64,000 nt of DNA from Candidatus Aenigmatarchaeota archaeon (GTDB lineage: Archaea > Aenigmatarchaeota > Aenigmatarchaeia > GW2011-AR5 > JAGGXF01). Positions 37,483 to 53,485 of this stretch are shown one piece after another (the first letter of the stretch is position 1; every line of letters begins with the position of its first letter). The notes below the pieces were generated by a model. That model searched no databases. It saw nothing but the letters and a program-made list of their open reading frames with translations, and was not told the origin of the DNA. The stretch covers positions 31,376-95,375 of the forward strand of contig JAGGVU010000002.1 in the NCBI GenBank assembly GCA_021157845.1, written 5' to 3'. A program made the position numbers and the translations under genes.

Positions 37483-38601
37483 GTGAAAAATATGGCTAGT
37501 GTAACACCTTGGGAAATCAAAGGAAAAATAGATTATAACAAGCTAATAAAAGAGTTTGGGCTGAAACCACTTCATAATCTTCCAAAGCAATTCTACAGAC
37601 ATTTTTTGTTCAGACGAAACATAATTTTTGCTCACAGGGATTTTAAAAGGATAGTGGATGCCGTTGAGCAAAAGAAGCCGTTTGCCATGATGACCGGTCT
37701 CATGCCTTCTGGTAAATTTCATTTCGGTCACAAAGTAGTTGCTGACCAGATTATTTTTTATCAGTCAATTGGGGCAAGGGTTTACATAGCTGTTGCAGAT
37801 ATCGAGGCATATAATACTAGAAACAAGGATATTAGCGAACTGCATAAGACAGCAATTAACGAATATCTCACAAACTATATTGCTCTTGGCCTAAATATCA
37901 AAAAATGCGACTTCTATTTCCAATCAAGTCGCTCTAAAGATGCAGATAAGGCAAACGCATATTATAGATTAGCTACTATGCTGGCAAGACACGCAACTTT
38001 TAACGAGTTTAGGGCTGTTTACGGTGAAATAACTATTGGAAAGATTATGTCTTCATTGCTACAGGCAGCAGACATGCTGCATCCACAACTTCCAGAATTC
38101 GAGGGAGGGCCCCTGCCAGTAGTTATTCCTGTCGGTTGCGACCAAGACCCGCACATCAGGCTAGCAAGAGATATTTCTCAGCGTGCCAGATTCTTTAATT
38201 TTATGCAGATAAGCTCTACATACCACAAATTTTTGCCCGGGCTAAAAGGAGGAAAAATGTCTTCAAGCGACCCCAATTCATACATAGCGCTGACAGACTC
38301 ACCAGAGCAAGTAGCCATAAAAATTAAAAAACATGCTTTCAGTGGAGGTCGCGGATCATTGGAAGAACATAGAAAAAAAGGCGGAAATCCGGATATAGAT
38401 GTATCTTTTCAGCTATTGAATTACGGGCTTGAGCCTAATGATAAAAATTTACAAAAGATTAGTGACGATTATAAATCCGGAAAACTGCTTTCCGGCGAGC
38501 TGAAGCAGATAGTAATAGAAAAAATAACCAAATTTCTTAAAGAGCACCAAAAGAAAAGAAAGAAGGCAAAGGCCAAACTGGAAAAGCTTGATTTATTCTA
38601 A
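37483..38601 (+). CDS. trpS: tryptophan--tRNA ligase (archaeal/eukaryotic type)
   Basis: N-terminal VTPWEIKG..IDYNKLIKEFG, HIGH motif FHFGH and KMSKS motif KMSSS. 372 aa. Confidence 0.8.
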   Translation: MKNMASVTPWEIKGKIDYNKLIKEFGLKPLHNLPKQFYRHFLFRRNIIFAHRDFKRIVDAVEQKKPFAMMTGLMPSGKFHFGHKVVADQIIFYQSIGARVYIAVADIEAYNTRNKDISELHKTAINEYLTNYIALGLNIKKCDFYFQSSRSKDADKANAYYRLATMLARHATFNEFRAVYGEITIGKIMSSLLQAADMLHPQLPEFEGGPLPVVIPVGCDQDPHIRLARDISQRARFFNFMQISSTYHKFLPGLKGGKMSSSDPNSYIALTDSPEQVAIKIKKHAFSGGRGSLEEHRKKGGNPDIDVSFQLLNYGLEPNDKNLQKISDDYKSGKLLSGELKQIVIEKITKFLKEHQKKRKKAKAKLEKLDLF

Positions 38602-39576
38602 TTTTTTCAAAACAAAAAAATATCTTGATAAAGATTTATGTACCCGTTGATATATCATGTATTTTATCTCCAGCCCAATCTTTTTCACTTTTTTTATGAA
38701 TGTTTTTGTAATCTTGTCAGGAACAACAATAACTATTTTTCCATCAGGCTTGGTGACTTCATATATAGATTCTATGGATTTACTATAAAGATGCACAACA
38801 TTTTTTTTGAATAGTGATGTCGATATGCCATAGGGCGGGTCTGTGACAACGGCATCAAATGTTCTTTTCCACACACGCTTTAAATCAGTTGCATCACCCT
38901 GCTTGAATATGCCCCTTAGTTTGAAATAGCTAAAATTTTTCTTGGCACCTTCTATCATTTCCTTTGACATGTCAGAGCCATAGCATCTTAGTCCTACTAT
39001 GCCTGCCTCCTTAAGAAGCAGACCAGTGCCACAGAACGGGTCTAGCACACAGCCATGTCTAAGACCTGTCAGATTAGCCATAGCTCTGGCTATCCTTGGA
39101 TCTAGTGTTATCGGTTTTCTATATGGGGCGGATGGTTTTAAAAAACCTTTATCAATATCAAACATTTTTTCTGTTATAATTATGTCTTTTGTCAGGATAA
39201 AAATTGTTATAATCTTTTCTGGATTTTCTAAGTCAACTCTTTTAGTGCTGTTATTCCACACAGCATCTGTAATCTTTTTTTTGTCCTTTTCTGAAATTTT
39301 CTGGTTTATTGTTTTTATCCTGACAGCGAATTTTTTTCTTATTTTTGGCATAGATGCTATTTTTTCATAGATGCGGCTTTTTTTTGTTTTGGTAAGAATC
39401 TTATGAACAGAATGTGCCATCCCGAGTTTATCTAGATTTGCAATCTTGTTTTTATTAGTGTCAAAAAATATGAACGGCCACTTCTTTTCATAAGAGCATG
39501 ACAATAATTTTAGTTTTGTCTCTGCCTCTGCTTCGGCCAACTTCGGAAAAAGCCCTGATAAATATATTAAATACAT
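38593..39576 (-). CDS. THUMP-domain tRNA (guanine-N2)-methyltransferase (Trm11/Trm14 family)
   Basis: N-terminal THUMP-like region, SAM-binding motif VLDPFCGTG and catalytic motif DPPYG. Confidence 0.7.
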   Translation of the reverse strand: MYLIYLSGLFPKLAEAEAETKLKLLSCSYEKKWPFIFFDTNKNKIANLDKLGMAHSVHKILTKTKKSRIYEKIASMPKIRKKFAVRIKTINQKISEKDKKKITDAVWNNSTKRVDLENPEKIITIFILTKDIIITEKMFDIDKGFLKPSAPYRKPITLDPRIARAMANLTGLRHGCVLDPFCGTGLLLKEAGIVGLRCYGSDMSKEMIEGAKKNFSYFKLRGIFKQGDATDLKRVWKRTFDAVVTDPPYGISTSLFKKNVVHLYSKSIESIYEVTKPDGKIVIVVPDKITKTFIKKVKKIGLEIKYMIYQRVHKSLSRYFFVLKKLE

Positions 39577-39680
39577 TTAAAATACCTCGCAATATTTGAT
39601 ATGTCACTATTTAACCAGCTTATAAAAGCACGTGCAAGATTGAATAATAAATATTTATATAGCCCGTATAAAATAAATTT

Positions 39681-41048
39681 ATGAACCTTAATAAGATAAA
39701 GCAAAATGTTCTGAGGGTTATAAAGCCTACAAAAAAGGAAAGAGAATTTCTAGACTCGTTTATAAAAGAGCTTCTGTCCATGGCAAAACTAAAATGTGAA
39801 AAATATCGTGCAGATGCTATTATAGTCGGGTCAACCGGAAAGCAGACATGGTTGAGAGGAGACTATGATATAGATATGTTCTTAATGTTTCCATATTCCC
39901 TGTCAAGAGAAGCGCTGGAAGAGAAGGGAATGAAATTGGCGAAGCTGATAGCAAAAAGGTTCACAAATGAGATAAAAATAAGTTACGCTGAGCATCCATA
40001 CGTTCAGGCCTATATAAATAGAAATGGCTACAAATTCAAGGTAGATATAGTTCCGTGCTATATGATAAGGAAGGGTCAAAAAATAAAATCCGCAGTTGAT
40101 CGTTCACCCCTTCATTTATCGTACATACTCCAAAATATGAATCCAACGCTTCGGGATGAAGCACGATTACTAAAGCAGTTTTGCAAAGGAATTGGTGTTT
40201 ATGGGAGTGATACGAAAAATTGTGGAGTTTCTGGATATGTTTTAGAGATATTGACTATGTTCTACGGAAGATTTGAAGATACACTTCAAAATATATCAAA
40301 ATGGTCATATGGAACTAGAATAGATTTAGAGGGAAAAAGCAAGAAGCGCTTTAAAGACCCGTTAATCGTTATTGATCCAACAGATAAAAACAGAAATGCG
40401 GCCGCAGCTTTAAGTGCAGAAAATTTTATGAAATTAATCAAAAAAAGCAAAGATTTCCTTTCTAACCCAAGTGAAAAATTTTTCTTTCCCACAAAAAACA
40501 AACTAACAAAATATCAGTTACAGTTGCTCAAAAAAAGAGGAACAAAATTCTTGGCAATAATTTTTGACAAACCGAAAGTAGTGGACGATATAGTTTATCC
40601 ACAACTCAGAAAAACAAGAAAACGAATAAAAAAACTTTTAGAGCAACAGGAATTTAGGGTTATTCGCGATACGGTGTGGTGCTCAGAATCAAAGTGCCTA
40701 ATTGTGATCGAATTAGAAGTTTGGTCGCTTCCAAAAATAAAAAAAATTATAGGCCCAGAAGTTTGGTATAAAAAAAGGAGTGAGGAGTTCTTATCTAAGT
40801 ATAAAAATTATGCCTCATTTGTAGAAAACAACAGATGGGTTGCGGAAAAAGAAAGAGAATTTTTAACAGCATCGAAATTTTTAGGCTATATAATAAAATC
40901 AGAAAAAATAGAAAATCTTGGATTTGGAAGTTATGTAGCACAGAAACTAAAAAAAGGAAAAATAGTCGAACACGAAGATTTCTGGACATTTGTTGAGCAC
41001 AATAAAATGTTTTCAAATTTTCTAAGAGAAAAATATTTCGAGAGCTGA
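39681..41048 (+). CDS. cca: CCA-adding tRNA nucleotidyltransferase, archaeal class I
   Basis: GSTGKQTWLRGDYDIDMFLMF class-I NTase motif. 455 aa. Confidence 0.85.
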   Translation: MNLNKIKQNVLRVIKPTKKEREFLDSFIKELLSMAKLKCEKYRADAIIVGSTGKQTWLRGDYDIDMFLMFPYSLSREALEEKGMKLAKLIAKRFTNEIKISYAEHPYVQAYINRNGYKFKVDIVPCYMIRKGQKIKSAVDRSPLHLSYILQNMNPTLRDEARLLKQFCKGIGVYGSDTKNCGVSGYVLEILTMFYGRFEDTLQNISKWSYGTRIDLEGKSKKRFKDPLIVIDPTDKNRNAAAALSAENFMKLIKKSKDFLSNPSEKFFFPTKNKLTKYQLQLLKKRGTKFLAIIFDKPKVVDDIVYPQLRKTRKRIKKLLEQQEFRVIRDTVWCSESKCLIVIELEVWSLPKIKKIIGPEVWYKKRSEEFLSKYKNYASFVENNRWVAEKEREFLTASKFLGYIIKSEKIENLGFGSYVAQKLKKGKIVEHEDFWTFVEHNKMFSNFLREKYFES

Positions 41049-46798: not shown

Positions 46799-46978
46799 TG
46801 GGTCCAGGGAGATTTGAACTCCCGTCTGAAGCTGTTTTTAATCCTTTACATTAACCCGAAGCTGTAAAGGACTGCCCAAAGCTCCGATCCTAGACCAAAT
46901 TGCCCAAGCCAAAGATTTCTCTTTTCCCTTGAGGATTTTCTCTTTTTAAAGAGAAAAGGCTCACTAGACTATGGACCC
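46799..46978 (-). tRNA. tRNA-Pro(UGG)-like gene with two putative introns (~67 nt in D-loop, 41 nt at 37/38)
   Basis: 5' acceptor GGGTCCA pairs with 3' TGGACCC, discriminator A. T-arm GGGAG-TTCAAAT-CTCCC. Inferred mature sequence GGGTCCA TA GTCT AGTTGGTCTA GGAT C GGAGC TTTGGGA GCTTC AGAC GGGAG TTCAAAT CTCCC TGGACCC A. Intron 2 carries an 8-bp hairpin CCTTTACA/TGTAAAGG. Confidence 0.5.
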
Positions 46979-47032
46979 ATGTATCAATAAAATAGCAAGA
47001 AGACATTTAAAACTTTTTCGTCAAGGTTAATT

Positions 47033-47848
47033 ATGAACTTGAAGCAAATACTATCAAAGAAGTTAAATGTCAAAAAGGAAAAGCTGCCAAAAAGTTTTGA
47101 CCAGATTGGTTCTATATCTATAATAGATATCCCCGATGAGCTAAAAAAATATGAGAGGATTATTGGCCAAGAATTAATCAGGCTACATAAAAATATCAAA
47201 ACTGTTTATAAAAAGGGCTCGGCACGGAGTGGTATATACAGAACAAGAAAACTGAACTACTTGGCAGGAGAACGAACAGAAATAACAGAGCACAAAGAGT
47301 TTGGCTGTAAATTAAGAATGAATATTAGAAGATGTTATTTCTCGCCAAGAGAAGGAACAGAGCGCTCAAGGTTAATAAAACAAATTAGAAAAGGCGAGAC
47401 AATAATGGTCTTTTTTGCAGGTATAGGTCCGTACCCCATACTAATAAGTAGGCGCACCAAGGCAAAAAATATAATAGGGATAGAGCTGAACCCTGTAGCT
47501 GTGAAATATTTCAGGGAGAATGTGAAGATAAATAAAGCAAAAAATGTCAGTGTAATAGAAGGGGATGTTAGAAAAAAGGCCAGAAAATTTTATGGTTTAT
47601 GTGACAGGGTTATAATGCCTTTGCCTGAGACGGGTTATAAATATTTGGAAGAAGCTATAAAATGTTTAAAAAAAGAAGGAACAATAAATTTTTATTGCTT
47701 TTCACCAGATGATTTAAGCTCGATAAAAGAGAAAATAATGCGCGCAGGAAAAAGGTTGACTAGAAAAGTAAAAATCATTGAACAAAGAAAGGTTCTTCCG
47801 TATAATGCAAGAATATCTAAATGGCGAATAGATATAAGGGTATATTAA
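47033..47848 (+). CDS. tRNA (guanine37-N1)-methyltransferase Trm5 / Taw2-family
   Basis: Met-10+ like SAM motif VFFAGIGPYPI and the NPVA motif (ELNPVAVKYF). Confidence 0.7.
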   Translation: MNLKQILSKKLNVKKEKLPKSFDQIGSISIIDIPDELKKYERIIGQELIRLHKNIKTVYKKGSARSGIYRTRKLNYLAGERTEITEHKEFGCKLRMNIRRCYFSPREGTERSRLIKQIRKGETIMVFFAGIGPYPILISRRTKAKNIIGIELNPVAVKYFRENVKINKAKNVSVIEGDVRKKARKFYGLCDRVIMPLPETGYKYLEEAIKCLKKEGTINFYCFSPDDLSSIKEKIMRAGKRLTRKVKIIEQRKVLPYNARISKWRIDIRVY

Positions 47849-48077
47849 ATTTTATTTTTGCTTTTCAACATGCTTTCAGATAAATGCCATTATAAAATTT
47901 TCTGAGCCGCATAAAAATTGCAAAAACATCTCATAAGCAGTTGTCAACAAGTGACATGCTTTCTATATTCAGCGAACTTACTGACACGCACCACATAAAG
48001 ACATACAAATGATATCGTAACACACTCAATTTTAAATTCTTAAATAGCTTTTTGCCTTATTCATTATAGATGATAAA

Positions 48078-48599
48078 ATGATAGTCGTTTTGCGGTTAGG
48101 TCACCGCTTAGGCAGGGACGCAAGAATTTCTACACATGTGGGACTTGTGGCAAGGGCCTTTGGAGCTGATTTTTTAATTATCAGCGGAGAGCATGATAAA
48201 AAGGTGATAGAAAGTATAACGAATGTTAGTGACGAATGGGGCGGGCATTTTGATACTGTTTATAAGAAAAAATGGGAGCAATGTATTAGCGAATATAAGA
48301 AGAAAGGGTTTTCTATAATTCATTTAACTATGTATGGTCTGCCTATCCAAAATAAAATTAATGAAATCAGGAAAAAGAAAAATCTTCTGATCGTAGTTGG
48401 TGGCCAAAAAGTTCCTGGTGAAGTATATAAAATCAGTGACTACAATATTGCCATCACAAACCAGCCGCATTCAGAAGTCGCGGCATTAGCTGTGTTTTTA
48501 CACGAATATTTTTCAGGTACTGAACTGGACAGACAATGGAAAGATGCTAGTAAGAAAATAATTCCGCAGAAAAGAGGAAAGCAAGTTATTAACCAATAA
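48078..48599 (+). CDS. tRNA (cytidine56-2'-O)-methyltransferase aTrm56 (SPOUT)
   Basis: VLRLGHRLGRDARISTHVGLVARAFGA matches the aTrm56 N-terminal consensus. Confidence 0.7.
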   Translation: MIVVLRLGHRLGRDARISTHVGLVARAFGADFLIISGEHDKKVIESITNVSDEWGGHFDTVYKKKWEQCISEYKKKGFSIIHLTMYGLPIQNKINEIRKKKNLLIVVGGQKVPGEVYKISDYNIAITNQPHSEVAALAVFLHEYFSGTELDRQWKDASKKIIPQKRGKQVINQ

Positions 48600-48605
48600 T
48601 GTTAA

Positions 48606-49322
48606 TTAATAATTGGCCCTTATTTCTGTTTTGACAAATTTTTCAGCGATAGATTTGAACGTATTTAATTCTGCAACTGAAAAGGATTTTTTCTTTTCGT
48701 ATTCTGGGTTTATGCAGTTTTGTGGAACAAAGTTTTGTATTACAAATTTCTTGGCACCCTTGATATATTTCACTATCGCTTCAATATCTTCTTTGGTGTG
48801 GAGGCCAGGCACAGCAGTTGTTCTGAACTCATAAGCCACACCACTTTTTATTATAATAGAAACGCTTCTTTTTATCTTTTTTAATTTTTCATCTGTTATT
48901 TTAATTCCACACGCCTTGGAATATTTCTCTTTAGTTAGGGGAGATTTTATGTCCATAGCAATAAAGTCAACAAGATTTTGGCTAACGATCTCTTCTAATT
49001 TTTCAGGAAAACTTCCGTTTGTGTCTAATTTAACGAGATAGCCAAGTTCTTTAATTTTTTTAATGAAACTTACCAGATCTGTTTGCAGGCATGGTTCGCC
49101 GCCGGTTATTTCAACAGCTTCGAGAAGGTTTTTTCTTTTTTTCAAAAAATCGAAAATCTCCCCTTCTTTTATATGGTTTAGTTGCTTTATTTTTTTTTCA
49201 AGGACAAGCTGGCTGTTATGACAGAACGGACATCTGAAATTACAACCAATCGTAAAAATTATACATGATATTTTCCCGGGATAGTCTATCAAGGAAATTT
49301 TCTGAAGCCCTCCTATTAACAT
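48606..49322 (-). CDS. nrdG: anaerobic ribonucleotide reductase activating protein (radical SAM, NrdG-like)
   Basis: CNFRCPFCHN radical-SAM cluster motif. Adjacent to nrdD. Confidence 0.7.
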   Translation of the reverse strand: MLIGGLQKISLIDYPGKISCIIFTIGCNFRCPFCHNSQLVLEKKIKQLNHIKEGEIFDFLKKRKNLLEAVEITGGEPCLQTDLVSFIKKIKELGYLVKLDTNGSFPEKLEEIVSQNLVDFIAMDIKSPLTKEKYSKACGIKITDEKLKKIKRSVSIIIKSGVAYEFRTTAVPGLHTKEDIEAIVKYIKGAKKFVIQNFVPQNCINPEYEKKKSFSVAELNTFKSIAEKFVKTEIRANY

Positions 49323-49537: not shown

Positions 49538-52500
49538 TTAATTCTCTGTAGCACAAATTGGGCAGTAATAATGTTTTCCAGGTATATAGCCGTGTATAGG
49601 GCATATGCTAAATGTTGGTGTTATGGTAAAGTATGGAAGCCTGAAATTTTCTGCTATCTTTCTTATAAGATTTTTCGTAGCTTCTGGGGATGGCATGCTC
49701 TCGCCTATAAATCCATGCAAAACTGTCCCACCTGTATATTTACATTGTAGGTTATCCTGAAGTTTCAAAGCTTCAAAAATGTCATCCGTGTAGTCAACTG
49801 GCAGTTGTGTTGAATTTGTATAGTACGGTGCTGCACCTCTTCTATAATTTTCTTCGTTTGCAACTATTATGTCCGGATAATTTTTTTTGTCAAGCCGCGC
49901 AAGCCTATGAGACGCCCCTTCTGCTGGTGTTGCCTCGAGGTTATATATATTTCCTGTTTCCTGTTGATAGCTCTGGAGTTTATTTCTCATAAAGTCCAAA
50001 ACCTTCTCAGCAAATTTTCTGCCTTTTTCGTCTGCTATATTTACGCCCATAAAATTTAGTAGGGCTTCGTTCATACCAATTAGTCCAATCGTTGAGAAAT
50101 GGTTTTTCCAATATTTCCCTGTTTTTTGTTTTATACTTCTCAAATAAAATCTGGAATATGGATACAGCCCCTTTTCAGTGAAATTTTCAATAATTTTTCT
50201 TTTGATTTCAAGGCTTTTTTTTGCCAGGTCCATATTTTTTTCAAGTTTCTCAAAAAACTCTTCTTCTGTTTTTGACATGTACCCTATTTTTGGCATGTTT
50301 ATGGTTACCACGCCTATAGAACCTGTGAGCGGATTAGCACCAAACAGTCCGCCGCCCCTTTTTTTTAATTCTCTATTGTCTATTCTAAGCCGGCAGTTGT
50401 GCGTAAGAATACCAGTAGTTCCTACTGTAAACATTGGCTCCCCGTTCTCAACTTCAAAGCAATAAGCAGTATTGTTTTTTAATTGCTTAATAGACTTGAT
50501 CTTTATCCAAAGCTTGTTGTCATGTTTAAACCAGAAATCACCATAGTTATTTCTATTTAGTTGATAGACTAAAACGGAATAGTTCGGTTCTTCACCTAAT
50601 CTACCGTCTCTACTGTCCTCATATACAGATGTGGTTGTTCCTAAAGTAGCTGCAAGCATATTAAGTGTTTCTAACATTTTCTTGGATGATGTGTATATTC
50701 TGTTGCGATTTCCTCCATCTGTTGCATAGTGCCCTTCCAATACACCCTTTCTAAATTCCAAACTCATTCCAAATATTCTACTTTTATAATGCTTCTCTCT
50801 TTTTATTCCAGAAACAAAGTCTTTACAAAGTCCTACAGCAGCTTTTGAATGTATTCTAAGTGTAAAGAGTTTAGTGTCGTCATACTCCTTTGTTGTACAA
50901 TGCGCCCCAAAATATTTTTCGGCAATTTGTTTTAGTTTTTTTGCAACAGTCTTTTTTTCTCCGGCTCCTAAAGAAAACACAACTGTTGTTTCTCTATCTA
51001 ATGATCCATCACCCGCATAAGCACCTACAAAATATCCCAAGTCAGCATTTCCACCATTTCCTTCGTACACATTAAGAGAATAGGGAAGATACATGCCTTC
51101 TTCCAATTGCTCTCCTTTCAATTCTTCTACCACCGCGTCTGGCCCTCTCATTACAAAATTGAGATGTTCACTAGACATTTTTATTTTATGACCATTTTCG
51201 AGAGCAATTTCAATCATTTTTTGATTTGGGAATTTGTTAAACTTGCCTTTTACAAATTTTCCATCACTGTAAATTTCATATTTCTCAGTCTTAGAATTAC
51301 CTTCATAGATGTTTCTAATGCTTGAATATTCCAACCTCCTTCCTCTATTTGATTTTATCAATACCTTTTCTTCGCCATCTAGCGGACACATACTTCTTAC
51401 GTCATCTGGCTTCATGTCACTATTTATAAAATTAGCGAAATATGGAACTCCGTACTTTGCAGTCATTTCCCAAAGTGGTTTATAGTCTTCTTTATCCCAC
51501 TCAAAATTTTTCGTTATGTTATATGTTGGAATTGGGAATGTGAACACCCGGCCTTTTGCATCACCTTCTAGCATCATTTCAGCAAACGCCCTGTTTATCA
51601 TATTCATCTCTTTCTGAAAGTCAGAGTAGGATTCTTTCTGCGGCTTTCCACCAATTATTACTGGCTCGTTTTTCATGTAGCTTGGAACTTCCAAATCGAG
51701 CGTTATGTTTGTAAAAGGAGTGTTCCCTGTTATGAAGACTTTGCCATTTCTTCTTGCTATTACAGTCTCATTTTTTGTGTTTGGGCACCATATTATCCCG
51801 TTATAGTTTACTTTTGTTATTTTCTGTATATACGTTTCCTTGTGTTTGATAAGTCTAAGGACATAAATATCTTTACTGCCGATTGTTGGCTTTCTTTTCA
51901 AGACAGTAAATCCGTACCCAGCGTTAACTGCTATGATTTGCAGTGCATCTAAAATTTCCAAATTCGTCGTCGCAATTTTGCAATTTTCGAACCCATCTGC
52001 CTTAAGGTAAGTTTGAATAAATAACTTAGACTGCCGTTCGTTCATATTTAATAAAATATCAGGTACAAAACTGATATTATCTCTAGTTCCAAACCATTTG
52101 TGAATTTTTCTGGAACTTTTTGCGTCAAGCCTAAGTCTTGCGACTTTACCATCAAAAGCAGCAGACTCATATTCAGAGTATTTTAGTTTGAAATGTTTCA
52201 GAAGTTTGATTATTTCTTTATAGTTCTTTTTGTTTTTTTCTTTCGACTGGTAAATACTTATCCTGTAGCAGTGTCTATATTTTGTTGGTCTTTCTATTGT
52301 TCCTTCGCTTATAATCCATGCCATTAATTTTATTTGTTCATCACTGATTGTTGCCTCTTTGTTTGAATTTTTTCCAGCGATAGGAATAATAAAAGGTGAT
52401 TTTAATTTTATGACGTCTTCTATCGGTTCAAGTATATATGCGCTGGTTTGAAAATTTTTTCTAACAACCCTATGTTTTGGCGATATTAATTGATCTTGTA

Positions 52501-53485
52501 CATGATTTTTCAGATTATACATTATTCCCTTATAATGCTTTTTGAAAACTCTTCTGACACGCTGATTTTCTATTTTGCCTGTTTTTACATTAAATGTCTT
52601 TATTATACTCCCTCTTTTTATTTCGTCATATCTGGCCCAGCCTTCTGGTGTCAATATTTCCGTATCTTCTGATACACACTGAAACCCAACCCTTGTCGGC
52701 ACATTTATGTTAAATAGAAATTCCTGCATCGCCTGCTTAACCTGTTTGTAGTTTAGATTGTCATAGCGAATAAATGGCGCAAGAAGCGTATCAAAATTTG
52801 AAAAAGCCTGTGCACCCGCTGCCTCGCCCTGCAGTGTATAGAAAAAATTTATTATCTGGCCAAGTGCAACCCGCAGATGTTTTGCAGGTTTGGTTTCTAT
52901 TTTTCCGCTCACACCTTTGAAGCCTGATAAGAGAAGGTCCTGCAAATCCCATCCTACGCAGTATGCACCAAATATTCCCAAATCATGAATATGAAAATCG
53001 CCGCTATTATATGCCTGTCTGATTTCTGGTGGATATATTTTATTCAGCCAATAGTTAGAAATAATTTTTGATGAGATATGAAAATTTAAGCCCTGCAAGG
53101 AATAAGTCATATTGCTATTCTCACGCACGCGCCAGTCCTTTTCATCAAGATACTTATCAACAACACTGAGGTCGCCAACCATCCTTCTAAGTTCTCTCAG
53201 TTCTTTATGCTGTTGTCTGTATAATATGTATGCTTTGGCAGTTTTTGCGTGGCCGTTTTCTATTAAAACCTTTTCAACTATATCCTGTATTTCCTCAACT
53301 GTAGGTTCTCTGCTAATGCCATCATATTTTTTTTCTAATATTTCTACAACTTGGGCAGATAGTTTTTTAGATAACTCTTTATCTTTTCCACCAACTGCCT
53401 GTGCAGCTTTCCAAATGGCTTCTGTTATTTTATTCGGTTCAAAATCAACAATTCTTCCATCCCGCTTTTTGATTTTTTTTATCAT
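49538..53485 (-). CDS. nrdD: anaerobic ribonucleoside-triphosphate reductase NrdD (class III) interrupted by two inteins
   Basis: ATP-cone N-terminus, C-terminal ..TFSICPIHGY..CPIC glycyl-radical/Zn-ribbon region. Extein total is about 665 aa out of 1315. Confidence 0.85.
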   Translation of the reverse strand: MIKKIKKRDGRIVDFEPNKITEAIWKAAQAVGGKDKELSKKLSAQVVEILEKKYDGISREPTVEEIQDIVEKVLIENGHAKTAKAYILYRQQHKELRELRRMVGDLSVVDKYLDEKDWRVRENSNMTYSLQGLNFHISSKIISNYWLNKIYPPEIRQAYNSGDFHIHDLGIFGAYCVGWDLQDLLLSGFKGVSGKIETKPAKHLRVALGQIINFFYTLQGEAAGAQAFSNFDTLLAPFIRYDNLNYKQVKQAMQEFLFNINVPTRVGFQCVSEDTEILTPEGWARYDEIKRGSIIKTFNVKTGKIENQRVRRVFKKHYKGIMYNLKNHVQDQLISPKHRVVRKNFQTSAYILEPIEDVIKLKSPFIIPIAGKNSNKEATISDEQIKLMAWIISEGTIERPTKYRHCYRISIYQSKEKNKKNYKEIIKLLKHFKLKYSEYESAAFDGKVARLRLDAKSSRKIHKWFGTRDNISFVPDILLNMNERQSKLFIQTYLKADGFENCKIATTNLEILDALQIIAVNAGYGFTVLKRKPTIGSKDIYVLRLIKHKETYIQKITKVNYNGIIWCPNTKNETVIARRNGKVFITGNTPFTNITLDLEVPSYMKNEPVIIGGKPQKESYSDFQKEMNMINRAFAEMMLEGDAKGRVFTFPIPTYNITKNFEWDKEDYKPLWEMTAKYGVPYFANFINSDMKPDDVRSMCPLDGEEKVLIKSNRGRRLEYSSIRNIYEGNSKTEKYEIYSDGKFVKGKFNKFPNQKMIEIALENGHKIKMSSEHLNFVMRGPDAVVEELKGEQLEEGMYLPYSLNVYEGNGGNADLGYFVGAYAGDGSLDRETTVVFSLGAGEKKTVAKKLKQIAEKYFGAHCTTKEYDDTKLFTLRIHSKAAVGLCKDFVSGIKREKHYKSRIFGMSLEFRKGVLEGHYATDGGNRNRIYTSSKKMLETLNMLAATLGTTTSVYEDSRDGRLGEEPNYSVLVYQLNRNNYGDFWFKHDNKLWIKIKSIKQLKNNTAYCFEVENGEPMFTVGTTGILTHNCRLRIDNRELKKRGGGLFGANPLTGSIGVVTINMPKIGYMSKTEEEFFEKLEKNMDLAKKSLEIKRKIIENFTEKGLYPYSRFYLRSIKQKTGKYWKNHFSTIGLIGMNEALLNFMGVNIADEKGRKFAEKVLDFMRNKLQSYQQETGNIYNLEATPAEGASHRLARLDKKNYPDIIVANEENYRRGAAPYYTNSTQLPVDYTDDIFEALKLQDNLQCKYTGGTVLHGFIGESMPSPEATKNLIRKIAENFRLPYFTITPTFSICPIHGYIPGKHYYCPICATEN
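50396..51388 (-). mobile_element. intein 2 in NrdD (331 aa, LAGLIDADG homing endonuclease) inserted at SM/CRLR catalytic motif
   Basis: Begins CPLDGEEKVLI. Block B GHKIKMSSEHLNFV. LGYFVGAYAGDGS LAGLIDADG motif. Ends GILTHN followed by C. Confidence 0.7.
51722..52678 (-). mobile_element. intein 1 in NrdD (319 aa, LAGLIDADG homing endonuclease)
   Basis: Begins CVSEDTEILTPEGW (block A). Block B ..SPKHRVV. LAGLIDADG-like motifs LMAWIISEGT and YLKADGFE. Ends KVFITGN followed by Thr, i.e. penultimate Gly instead of His. Confidence 0.6.

Follow-up and report, generated by a model that had tools for sequence, protein, structure and literature searches.

A stretch of minus-strand DNA at positions 46799-46978 of the window, by which we mean the whole 64,000-nucleotide sequence analysed, is very likely a functional tRNA-Pro(UGG) gene of Aenigmatarchaeota, a DPANN lineage, interrupted by two protein-spliced archaeal introns. 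Standard tRNA finders miss the gene because these two introns interrupt the proline tRNA. The parts of the locus, given in window coordinates and, where needed, in positions of its 180-nt core, are as follows:

46964..46978, minus strand: exon 1, tRNA positions 1-15, GGGTCCA TA GTCT AG
46900..46963, minus strand: intron 1 as best read, 64 nt, core 16-79, between positions 15 and 16, relaxed HBh' motif
46875..46899, minus strand: exon 2, tRNA positions 16-37, UUUGGUCUA GGAU C GGAGC UUUGGG
46834..46874, minus strand: intron 2, 41 nt, canonical position 37/38, hBHBh' geometry
46799..46833, minus strand: exon 3, tRNA positions 38-73, A GCUUC AGAC GGGAG UUCAAAU CUCCC UGGACCC A

The minus-strand letters of the locus run GGGTCCATAGTCTAG...GGGAGTTCAAATCTCCCTGGACCCA and comprise a discriminator A at 46799, a T-arm GGGAG TTCAAAT CTCCC and an acceptor stem paired at seven of seven positions, GGGTCCA (46972-46978) with TGGACCC (46800-46806), so that acceptor and T-arm span 180 nt. 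The original prediction had started from exactly these elements, a perfect acceptor stem, a discriminator A and a T-arm lying 180 nt apart, and all of them are present when the minus-strand sequence is re-read. Both strands of the 64-kb window (128 kb of strand) were scanned for a 5-bp T-stem with a TTYRANY loop combined with a fully paired 7-bp acceptor, where the acceptor needed at least six Watson-Crick pairs and its partner strand had to lie no more than 400 nt upstream. The sole match was 46799-46978, and hence the pairing of acceptor and T-arm is real and not a matter of chance.

Exon 1 contributes the acceptor 5' strand, U8, A9, the D-stem 5' strand, A14 and G15, as read from the sequence and from the ARAGORN cloverleaf obtained after splicing. 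Exon 2 carries the remainder of the D-loop with G18 and G19, the D-stem 3' strand, the 5' strand of the anticodon stem, U33, the anticodon UGG and G37, while exon 3 ends without an encoded CCA, the following bases being TCT. Excision of both inserts in silico creates the predicted ligated junctions ...GUCUAG-UUUGGUCUA... and ...UUUGGG-AGCUUC..., and ARAGORN calls the product tRNA-Pro(UGG) in its 75-nt and 74-nt versions alike. The Pro isotype and UGG anticodon proposed from the letters alone are thereby recovered by a tRNA finder once the inserts are removed. In the ARAGORN fold the spliced sequence forms a cloverleaf: its acceptor stem has 7 bp, the D, anticodon and T arms are all in place, and the 7-nt anticodon loop contains U33. 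It retains the conserved nucleotides U8-A14, G15-C48, G18, G19, A21, U33, U54-A58, C56 and G53-C61. It also displays the Pro-type features G35, G36, G37, A73 and G1-C72 together with the T-loop UUCAAAU; G35, G36, G37, A73 and G1-C72 would be expected to act as identity elements for ProRS.

ARAGORN detects no tRNA either in the 64-kb window or in the unspliced 180-nt core, whether or not intron mode is switched on, and Rfam, searched with the unspliced genomic sequence, returns nothing at the gathering threshold, nor at E<=0.5 across the whole window. By a covariance criterion of the Rfam RF00005 or tRNAscan-SE type, the genomic sequence does not score as a tRNA, the covariance search having been made on the unspliced letters only; this miss reflects the introns, and the exons are not at fault. 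A sub-threshold Rfam match of the tmRNA clan to the 3' part of the locus (25.5 bits, cut-off 47) was rejected on account of its score and of the archaeal context. Group I self-splicing introns possess a ribozyme core (P3-P9) of more than ~200 nt and typically interrupt the anticodon loop of tRNAs from bacteria or organelles; such an origin was rejected for the present inserts, which measure 41 and 64 nt and have no Rfam intron match. Likewise rejected was a split or permuted tRNA gene, as the three exons are collinear on one strand within 180 nt.

The tRNA locus shares a 54-nt spacer with the divergently oriented trm5 gene, and the following neighbouring features of the window are relevant to its interpretation:

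47033..47848, plus strand: trm5, tRNA m1G37 methyltransferase, PF02475 and PF25133, divergent from the tRNA
48078-48599, after trm5: trm56, PF01994
47005..47019, minus strand: putative BRE/TATA, GAAAAAG TTTTAAAT, inside the 54-nt spacer, 27-41 nt upstream of tRNA position 1
39681-41048, within the window: archaeal class I CCA-adding enzyme gene

The Pfam matches PF02475 and PF25133 bear out the earlier assignment of the neighbouring gene as Trm5. Besides Trm5 and Trm56, the window, which has a GC content of 35%, encodes TBP, aCPSF1, a proteasome beta subunit and an intein-containing NrdD. Among reference genomes the closest Trm5 belongs to a Candidatus Aenigmatarchaeota MAG (54% identity), and the named Trm5 homologues come nearly all from Aenigmatarchaeota. 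DPANN had been mentioned from the outset among the groups with non-canonical tRNA introns, and the host lineage indeed falls within it.

Splice motifs were sought as a 4-bp central helix H, an inner helix h' and an outer helix h, with a 3-nt bulge located 3' of each H strand and the cut following the second bulge nucleotide. The top BHB match in the 180 nt places the cuts after core 104 and core 145, on either side of intron 2. Its outer helix is the 5-bp anticodon stem GGAGC/GCUUC; its central helix joins UUUG (46877-46880) to AAAA (46836-46839) by three A-U pairs and one G.A mismatch; the bulges read G G / C and A C / A, the slash marking the cut; and the 11-bp inner helix is formed by AGUCCUUUACA (46863-46873) and UGUAAAGGAUU (46840-46850). 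Intron 2 is a near-strict bulge-helix-bulge, with strict-type hBHBh' geometry despite the G.A mismatch, and the motif was matched by none of 20,000 insert shuffles. With only intron 1 removed, ARAGORN -i again identifies this tRNA and places an intron of the same 41 nt after G37.

Comparison with relatives confirms the 37/38 boundaries, because orthologues in the same slot, divergent from trm5, read the predicted junction CGGAGCTTTGGGAGCTTCAGAC verbatim and unbroken, and because a free gapped alignment of the unspliced gene with two orthologues opens a single 41-nt gap exactly at 37/38. At the level of sequence, the exact 37/38 junction is therefore established. The alternative register (105,144) was rejected, as it would produce an anticodon loop of 9 nt. 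The original prediction had likewise placed a 41-nt intron between positions 37 and 38, in agreement with the BHB scan, the shuffles, ARAGORN -i and the orthologue junctions. Both hairpins that it listed, TTTTCTCTTT/AAAGAGAAAA and CCTTTACA/TGTAAAGG, are present, the second growing to 11 bp (AGTCCTTTACA/TGTAAAGGATT).

For the D-loop insert, a 64-nt intron at 15/16 is the favoured reading, its exact cut register being predicted from motif geometry and orthologues. In the BHB scan, cuts after core 15 and core 79 represent the sole register yielding a tRNA-like D-loop, and, owing to a T run, cuts at 15/16 and at 16/17 give one identical product. The central helix pairs GUCU (46966-46969), the D-stem 5' strand (G10-U13), with GGGC (46902-46905) at four of four positions, with G.U pairs at two; A14 G15 / U makes up the 5' bulge, GAGCC (46958-46962) and GGCUU (46906-46910) form an inner helix of 5 bp, and the 3' bulge is A A / U, with the single pair A9-U81 as outer closure. 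The strict hBHBh' geometry is absent from intron 1, where the 3' bulge is not enclosed and the outer helix amounts to one A-U pair; the relaxed HBh' geometry is present, comprising a 4-bp H, one enclosed 3-nt bulge and an inner helix. Motifs of the BHB type, on which the original prediction depended, are in this way found at both junctions, strict-like at 37/38 and relaxed HBh' in the D-loop. Hairpins UUUUCUCUU/AAGAGAAAA and AAAGA/UCUUU lie within the intron. An equivalent motif at any usable junction was reached by 56-111 of 20,000 insert shuffles (p about 0.003-0.006).

Excision of 64 nt leaves a mature D-loop of 11 nt, AGTTTGGTCTA (AGUUUGGUCUA), and a tRNA of 75 nt, which aligns gap-free to L140, L131 and L017, intronless tRNA-Pro genes with 11-nt D-loops of the form AGYYTGGTCTA. 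The registers (16,78) and (17,77) were rejected, since they leave D-loops of 13 or 15 nt that are found in no orthologue. The original prediction recognized two introns, one of them in the D-loop, and to this extent it is borne out; its size of about 67 nt for the D-loop insert is not, as BHB geometry and orthologues favour 64 nt, and the 74-nt product it described in fact requires the removal of 65 nt. We consider it unlikely that the same gene is spliced at these earlier boundaries, with a 65-nt (to about 67-nt) insert leaving to give a 74-nt tRNA with the 10-nt D-loop AGTTGGTCTA. ARAGORN accepts that product as tRNA-Pro(UGG) as well, and the spliced D-loops of the relatives L134 and L137 are also 10 nt long; however, a 65-nt excision fits no BHB register, the usable ones in the scan being 64, 62 and 60 nt, and the 74-nt product needs a gap against L140, L131 and L017. 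A mature length of 74 nt is hence acceptable to the tRNA finder, but motif geometry and orthologue alignment favour 75 nt.

A more sceptical reading takes only the 37/38 insert as a true EndA intron and has the 64-nt D-loop insert retained as an expansion or removed independently of a BHB. We regard this as very improbable. It draws on a motif without outer helix, on the poor cutting of such substrates reported for strict alpha4-type EndAs (PMC5829648, PMC3241643), and on the absence of the motif from the minimum-energy fold of the full 180-nt precursor, which pairs the intron 3' end with the D-arm 3' strand instead and lies 7.8 kcal/mol below the double-BHB fold. Yet the HBh' of intron 1 is the minimum-energy fold of the isolated 77-nt local substrate, the layout of H, bulge and h' is significant against shuffles, BHB-type introns occur in the same arm of relatives, and the layout is duplicated in an independent 15/16 intron. 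Retention would moreover place a 64-nt expansion between G15 and U16, which would disrupt the D-loop/T-loop core, and we know of no tRNA class with such an expansion. The independent example is a 32-nt intron at 15/16 in an unrelated metagenomic tRNA-Phe (L075), laid out as intron 1 is, with an H of GCUC/GAGC formed between the D-stem 5' strand and the intron, a bulge AG/A, a 5-bp inner helix and no outer helix; the architecture proposed for intron 1 thus recurs.

Direct repeats, GTCTAG and ACAGCTTC, had also been described as flanking the two inserts, a claim that their positions contradict. GTCTAG stands at core 10 and 84, and ACAGCTTC at core 114, where it lies in the loop of the intron hairpin, and at core 144, where it spans the 3' junction. 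By our estimate, roughly one sequence of 180 nt in four would contain an 8-mer repeat by chance, and on the grounds of position and chance expectation the repeats were rejected as insertion footprints. The GTCTAG repeat represents the usual self-similarity of the tRNA-Pro D-arm and is also seen in L017. Inspection of either intron by eye revealed no C/D-box motifs (RUGAUGA, CUGA).

Six contigs, drawn from five or more metagenome samples, carry the whole gene with 100% identity. Syntenic loci were reached through Trm5 homologues. In three relatives this slot, again divergent from trm5, is occupied by a tRNA-Pro(UGG), and the spliced product is 79-89% identical to the syntenic tRNA-Pro genes of L134, L137 and L140. 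In L140/L141, where Trm5 is 54% identical, an intronless 75-nt tRNA-Pro(UGG) lies divergently upstream of trm5, and L140 additionally has aCPSF1 and proteasome genes upstream, as does the window. Trm5 is 59% identical in L134-L136, which have ProRS nearby, and 57% identical in L137-L139; in both groups the slot contains, in addition to the tRNA-Pro(UGG), another tRNA-Pro whose anticodon is AGG, both free of anticodon-loop introns and with one D-arm insert of 19 or 28 nt each, for which the best BHB register is 22/23. ARAGORN accepts the insert-free products of L134-L139. L134 and L137 show a swap of the two intron types between their UGG and AGG paralogues.

All three groups resemble the window in the UGG anticodon, the orientation relative to trm5, a variable loop AGAC and an upstream AAAAAGTTTTA element, which in L134, L137 and L140 takes the form AAAAAGTTTTA(A/T)A and again lies between tRNA-Pro and trm5. 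This element fits an archaeal BRE/TATA and may function as one for either the tRNA or trm5. The anticodon stem GGAGC/GCUUC is common to the window, L134-L136 and L137-L139, whereas L140 has GGGGC/GCCUC. The groups differ from the window in their introns, none in L140/L141 and one at 22/23 in L134-L139 as against two in the window (15/16 and 37/38), and the intron sequences are unrelated. That orthologues have no intron or a single one at 22/23 indicates fast intron turnover.

In L133, Trm5 is 96% identical, and the tRNA gene matches the window without a difference through exon 1, the 64-nt intron and the D-stem, followed by an anticodon arm of the CGG type and then a different intron before the contig ends inside the gene. 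L133 represents a paralogue, or else its assembly is a chimera joined across the 5' part that the copies share. Intron 1 is 100% identical in L001-L006 and L133; beyond the same-population contigs and L133, no further copies of either intron were detected in the window or the retrieved loci. The 15/16 intron has no carrier at intermediate distance, and as its only further copy (L133) is identical, covariation support is lacking.

Synteny of tRNA-Pro and trm5 is confined to a sub-clade, as no tRNA adjoins the gene for the Trm5 homologues P0005, P0006, P0007 and P0018. A search of reference genome contigs with Trm5 as the query gave two distant loci (L007, L008), both without an upstream tRNA. 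Metagenome contigs were also searched with a pattern of T-arm plus NNNNCCCA, which supplied L017, L131, L075, L062 and L096 as comparators; no copy of the tRNA-Pro gene was among the matches listed.

The conserved slot bears on whether the locus is a decaying pseudogene, inactivated by its inserts, with a functional tRNA-Pro(UGG) encoded elsewhere in the genome. The failure of ARAGORN and Rfam to recognize the gene and the weakness of the D-loop motif would be in keeping with decay, but the three exons are intact, with all conserved tRNA nucleotides and perfect stems, and the splice-competent motifs around both inserts far exceed what shuffling would produce. The slot is, furthermore, orthologous to that of the relatives' tRNA-Pro(UGG), where introns also occur, and the promoter-like upstream element is conserved, which together make a pseudogene quite improbable in our judgement.

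For a functional, twice-interrupted tRNA-Pro(UGG) gene, the exons, motifs, orthology and synteny observed here lead us to infer transcription, EndA cleavage and ligation along the following lines. Transcription from the TATA/BRE ~30 nt upstream would generate a precursor of ~180 nt plus leader and trailer, in which EndA would recognize two BHB-type motifs and cleave after the second nucleotide of each 3-nt bulge. The near-strict hBHBh' at 37/38 would release the 41-nt intron and the relaxed HBh' at D-loop position 15/16 the 64-nt intron, whose 3' end (GGGC) would mimic the D-stem 3' strand by pairing with G10-U13. The three exons would be joined by an RtcB-type ligase, the ends trimmed by RNase P and RNase Z, and CCA added by the CCA-adding enzyme encoded in the window, and the resulting 75-nt tRNA with G37 would be a substrate for the neighbouring Trm5, which would methylate G37. 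A Pfam scan of 20 window ORFs detected neither EndA nor RtcB, and a tblastn search with M. jannaschii EndA was likewise negative; this result says little, since the window covers a mere portion of the genome.

Archaeal tRNA genes with several introns, as many as three in one gene, have been amply documented, and non-canonical positions on record include 20/21 and 22/23 (PMC4090602, PMC4033280, PMC3239211) as well as 25/26 among others (reviewed in PMC4090602). The pre-tRNA-Glu(UUC) of Methanopyrus kandleri resembles the window gene in combining a strict-type BHB at 37/38 with a relaxed HBh' D-loop intron, and in both genes removal by EndA and joining by a ligase are expected; the M. kandleri intron, at 20b/21, is cleaved by archaeal EndA in vitro, and relaxed D-loop introns of this HBh' kind need broad-specificity enzymes (PMC5829648). 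Compared with it, the D-loop intron of the window lies at 15/16, in a tRNA-Pro, and is long at 64 nt, and the host is a mesophile-like, AT-rich DPANN archaeon with 35% GC. Aeropyrum pernix pre-tRNA-Thr2(UGU) also has a D-loop intron, which is cleaved in vitro by EndA alone and so shows that guide RNAs and modifications can be dispensable for the processing of D-loop introns (PMC3241643). There the motif is a canonical BHB and the enzyme a CSL-bearing (alpha-beta)2 EndA (PMC3241643), whereas the window motif is relaxed and its splicing is deduced from sequence.

Within the same superphylum, disrupted tRNAs have been described together with the epsilon2 EndA of ARMAN-2 (PMC3239211) and with L3-loop alpha4 EndAs (PMC5829648), and they share with the window gene non-canonical introns, an unusual tRNA-Pro and incomplete sets from standard predictors. 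DPANN with an L3-loop EndA show more tRNA disruption and incomplete predicted tRNA sets (PMC5829648). The genomes treated there are those of Micrarchaeota/ARMAN, Pace-, Woese- and Nanohaloarchaeota, and the accessible text of PMC3239211 and PMC5829648 mentions neither an Aenigmatarchaeota tRNA set nor a 15/16 intron. The phenomenon is thus already known, and the gene is an unannotated multi-intron archaeal tRNA, a gain for annotation and not new biology. At 15/16 the intron mimics the D-stem 3' strand, and this insertion site may fall outside the standard catalogues of intron positions.

In this genome, tRNA-Pro(UGG), an essential decoder, is invisible to ARAGORN and Rfam, and consequently tRNA counts, completeness estimates and codon-usage inferences understate the tRNA sets of Aenigmatarchaeota and other DPANN MAGs. 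Hidden disrupted tRNA genes have already been suspected in DPANN (PMC5829648). The orthologue series of no intron, one at 22/23, and two at 15/16 and 37/38, anchored by the divergent trm5, supports recent gain and turnover of non-canonical tRNA introns, and the locus predicts that the splicing endonuclease of the lineage accepts relaxed HBh' substrates. More speculatively, and as a possibility that we rate as less than even, tRNA introns might still be gained, lost and transferred so actively in Aenigmatarchaeota that the lineage is a hot spot on a par with Thermoproteales. This reading is suggested by the occurrence of zero, one (22/23) or two (15/16 and 37/38) introns in one syntenic slot, by the swapping of intron types between UGG and AGG paralogues of two relatives, by the joining of an identical 64-nt intron to a CGG anticodon arm in a near-identical strain, and by the chance that 15/16 is an uncatalogued insertion site. 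If it were true, the EndA of the lineage must be of broad specificity, and many 'missing' tRNAs would be hidden multi-intron genes.

The modification made by Trm5, m1G37, matters especially for tRNA-Pro in keeping the reading frame. The conserved association between the tRNA-Pro and trm5 genes is in itself a small but suggestive functional linkage.

The trm5 gene, which encodes the m1G37 methyltransferase, and the tRNA-Pro gene are divergent neighbours in four lineages, namely the window and the relatives' loci L134, L137 and L140. In each of them the element AAAAAGTTTTA(A/T)A is conserved within the short spacer common to the two genes. The ProRS gene is also found close by in L134. This neighbourhood may point to co-regulation of the tRNA with its modifying enzyme.

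Window 46979-47032, spacer between tRNA-Pro and trm5
Window 47033-48599, trm5, then trm56

Adjoining tRNA-Pro(UGG), L134 and L137 carry a second tRNA gene with the anticodon loop TTAGGGA, identified by ARAGORN as tRNA-Pro(AGG); A34 is uncommon among archaeal tRNAs.

L134 ~2200-2330, reverse complement, tRNA-Pro(AGG)
L137 ~50-150, reverse complement, tRNA-Pro(AGG)

A comparison of L134 with L137 revealed that the D-arm introns at 22/23, one of 19 nt with the hairpin GUCU-UUCG-AGAC and the other of 28 nt with the hairpin GGCGC-GAAG-GCGCC, are swapped between the UGG and AGG genes, which points to a transfer of introns, or to gene conversion, between these paralogues. Since tRNA-Pro(AGG) is reported from at least ARMAN-4 and another ARMAN lineage as well (Fujishima et al. 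2011, PMC3239211), this tRNA may be a DPANN-wide trait.

The corresponding slot was also present in L133, from a strain with 96% identity in Trm5.

L133 1-130, reverse complement, tRNA-Pro slot

Here exon 1, the 64-nt D-loop intron and the D-stem are identical to those of the window tRNA-Pro(UGG) gene. What follows the D-stem is an anticodon arm of the CGG type (GGGCC UUCGGG), whose intron differs from that of the window gene, and L133 stops ~30 nt further on. Either this is a tRNA-Pro(CGG) paralogue that has the D-loop intron in common, or the assembly is chimeric across the repeat.

D-loop introns seem to be common in environmental archaea, as introns of 21-32 nt were found, among the matches listed, in three unrelated archaeal tRNA-Phe(GAA) genes on metagenome contigs (L075, L062 and L096; Ga0315289_10447151, Ga0315289_10002745 and one more). 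All three have a motif of the relaxed bulge-helix-bulge (HBh') type, without the outer helix, and their best-scoring registers differ, with cuts after gene positions 15, 21 and 20, respectively.

Across the whole 64-kb window, no tRNA gene besides tRNA-Pro was detectable. The window also holds a cluster of tRNA-related genes (37483-41048) and, elsewhere, an anaerobic ribonucleotide reductase ORF that matches intein and LAGLIDADG domains in Pfam.

Window 37483-38601, class I Trp/Tyr-tRNA synthetase
Window 38593-39576, minus strand, RMKL-like methyltransferase domain protein (PF01170/UPF0020)
Window 39681-41048, CCA-adding enzyme
Window 48606-49322, NrdD activase, adjoining NrdD
Window 49538-53485, minus strand, NrdD, 1315 aa (Pfam)
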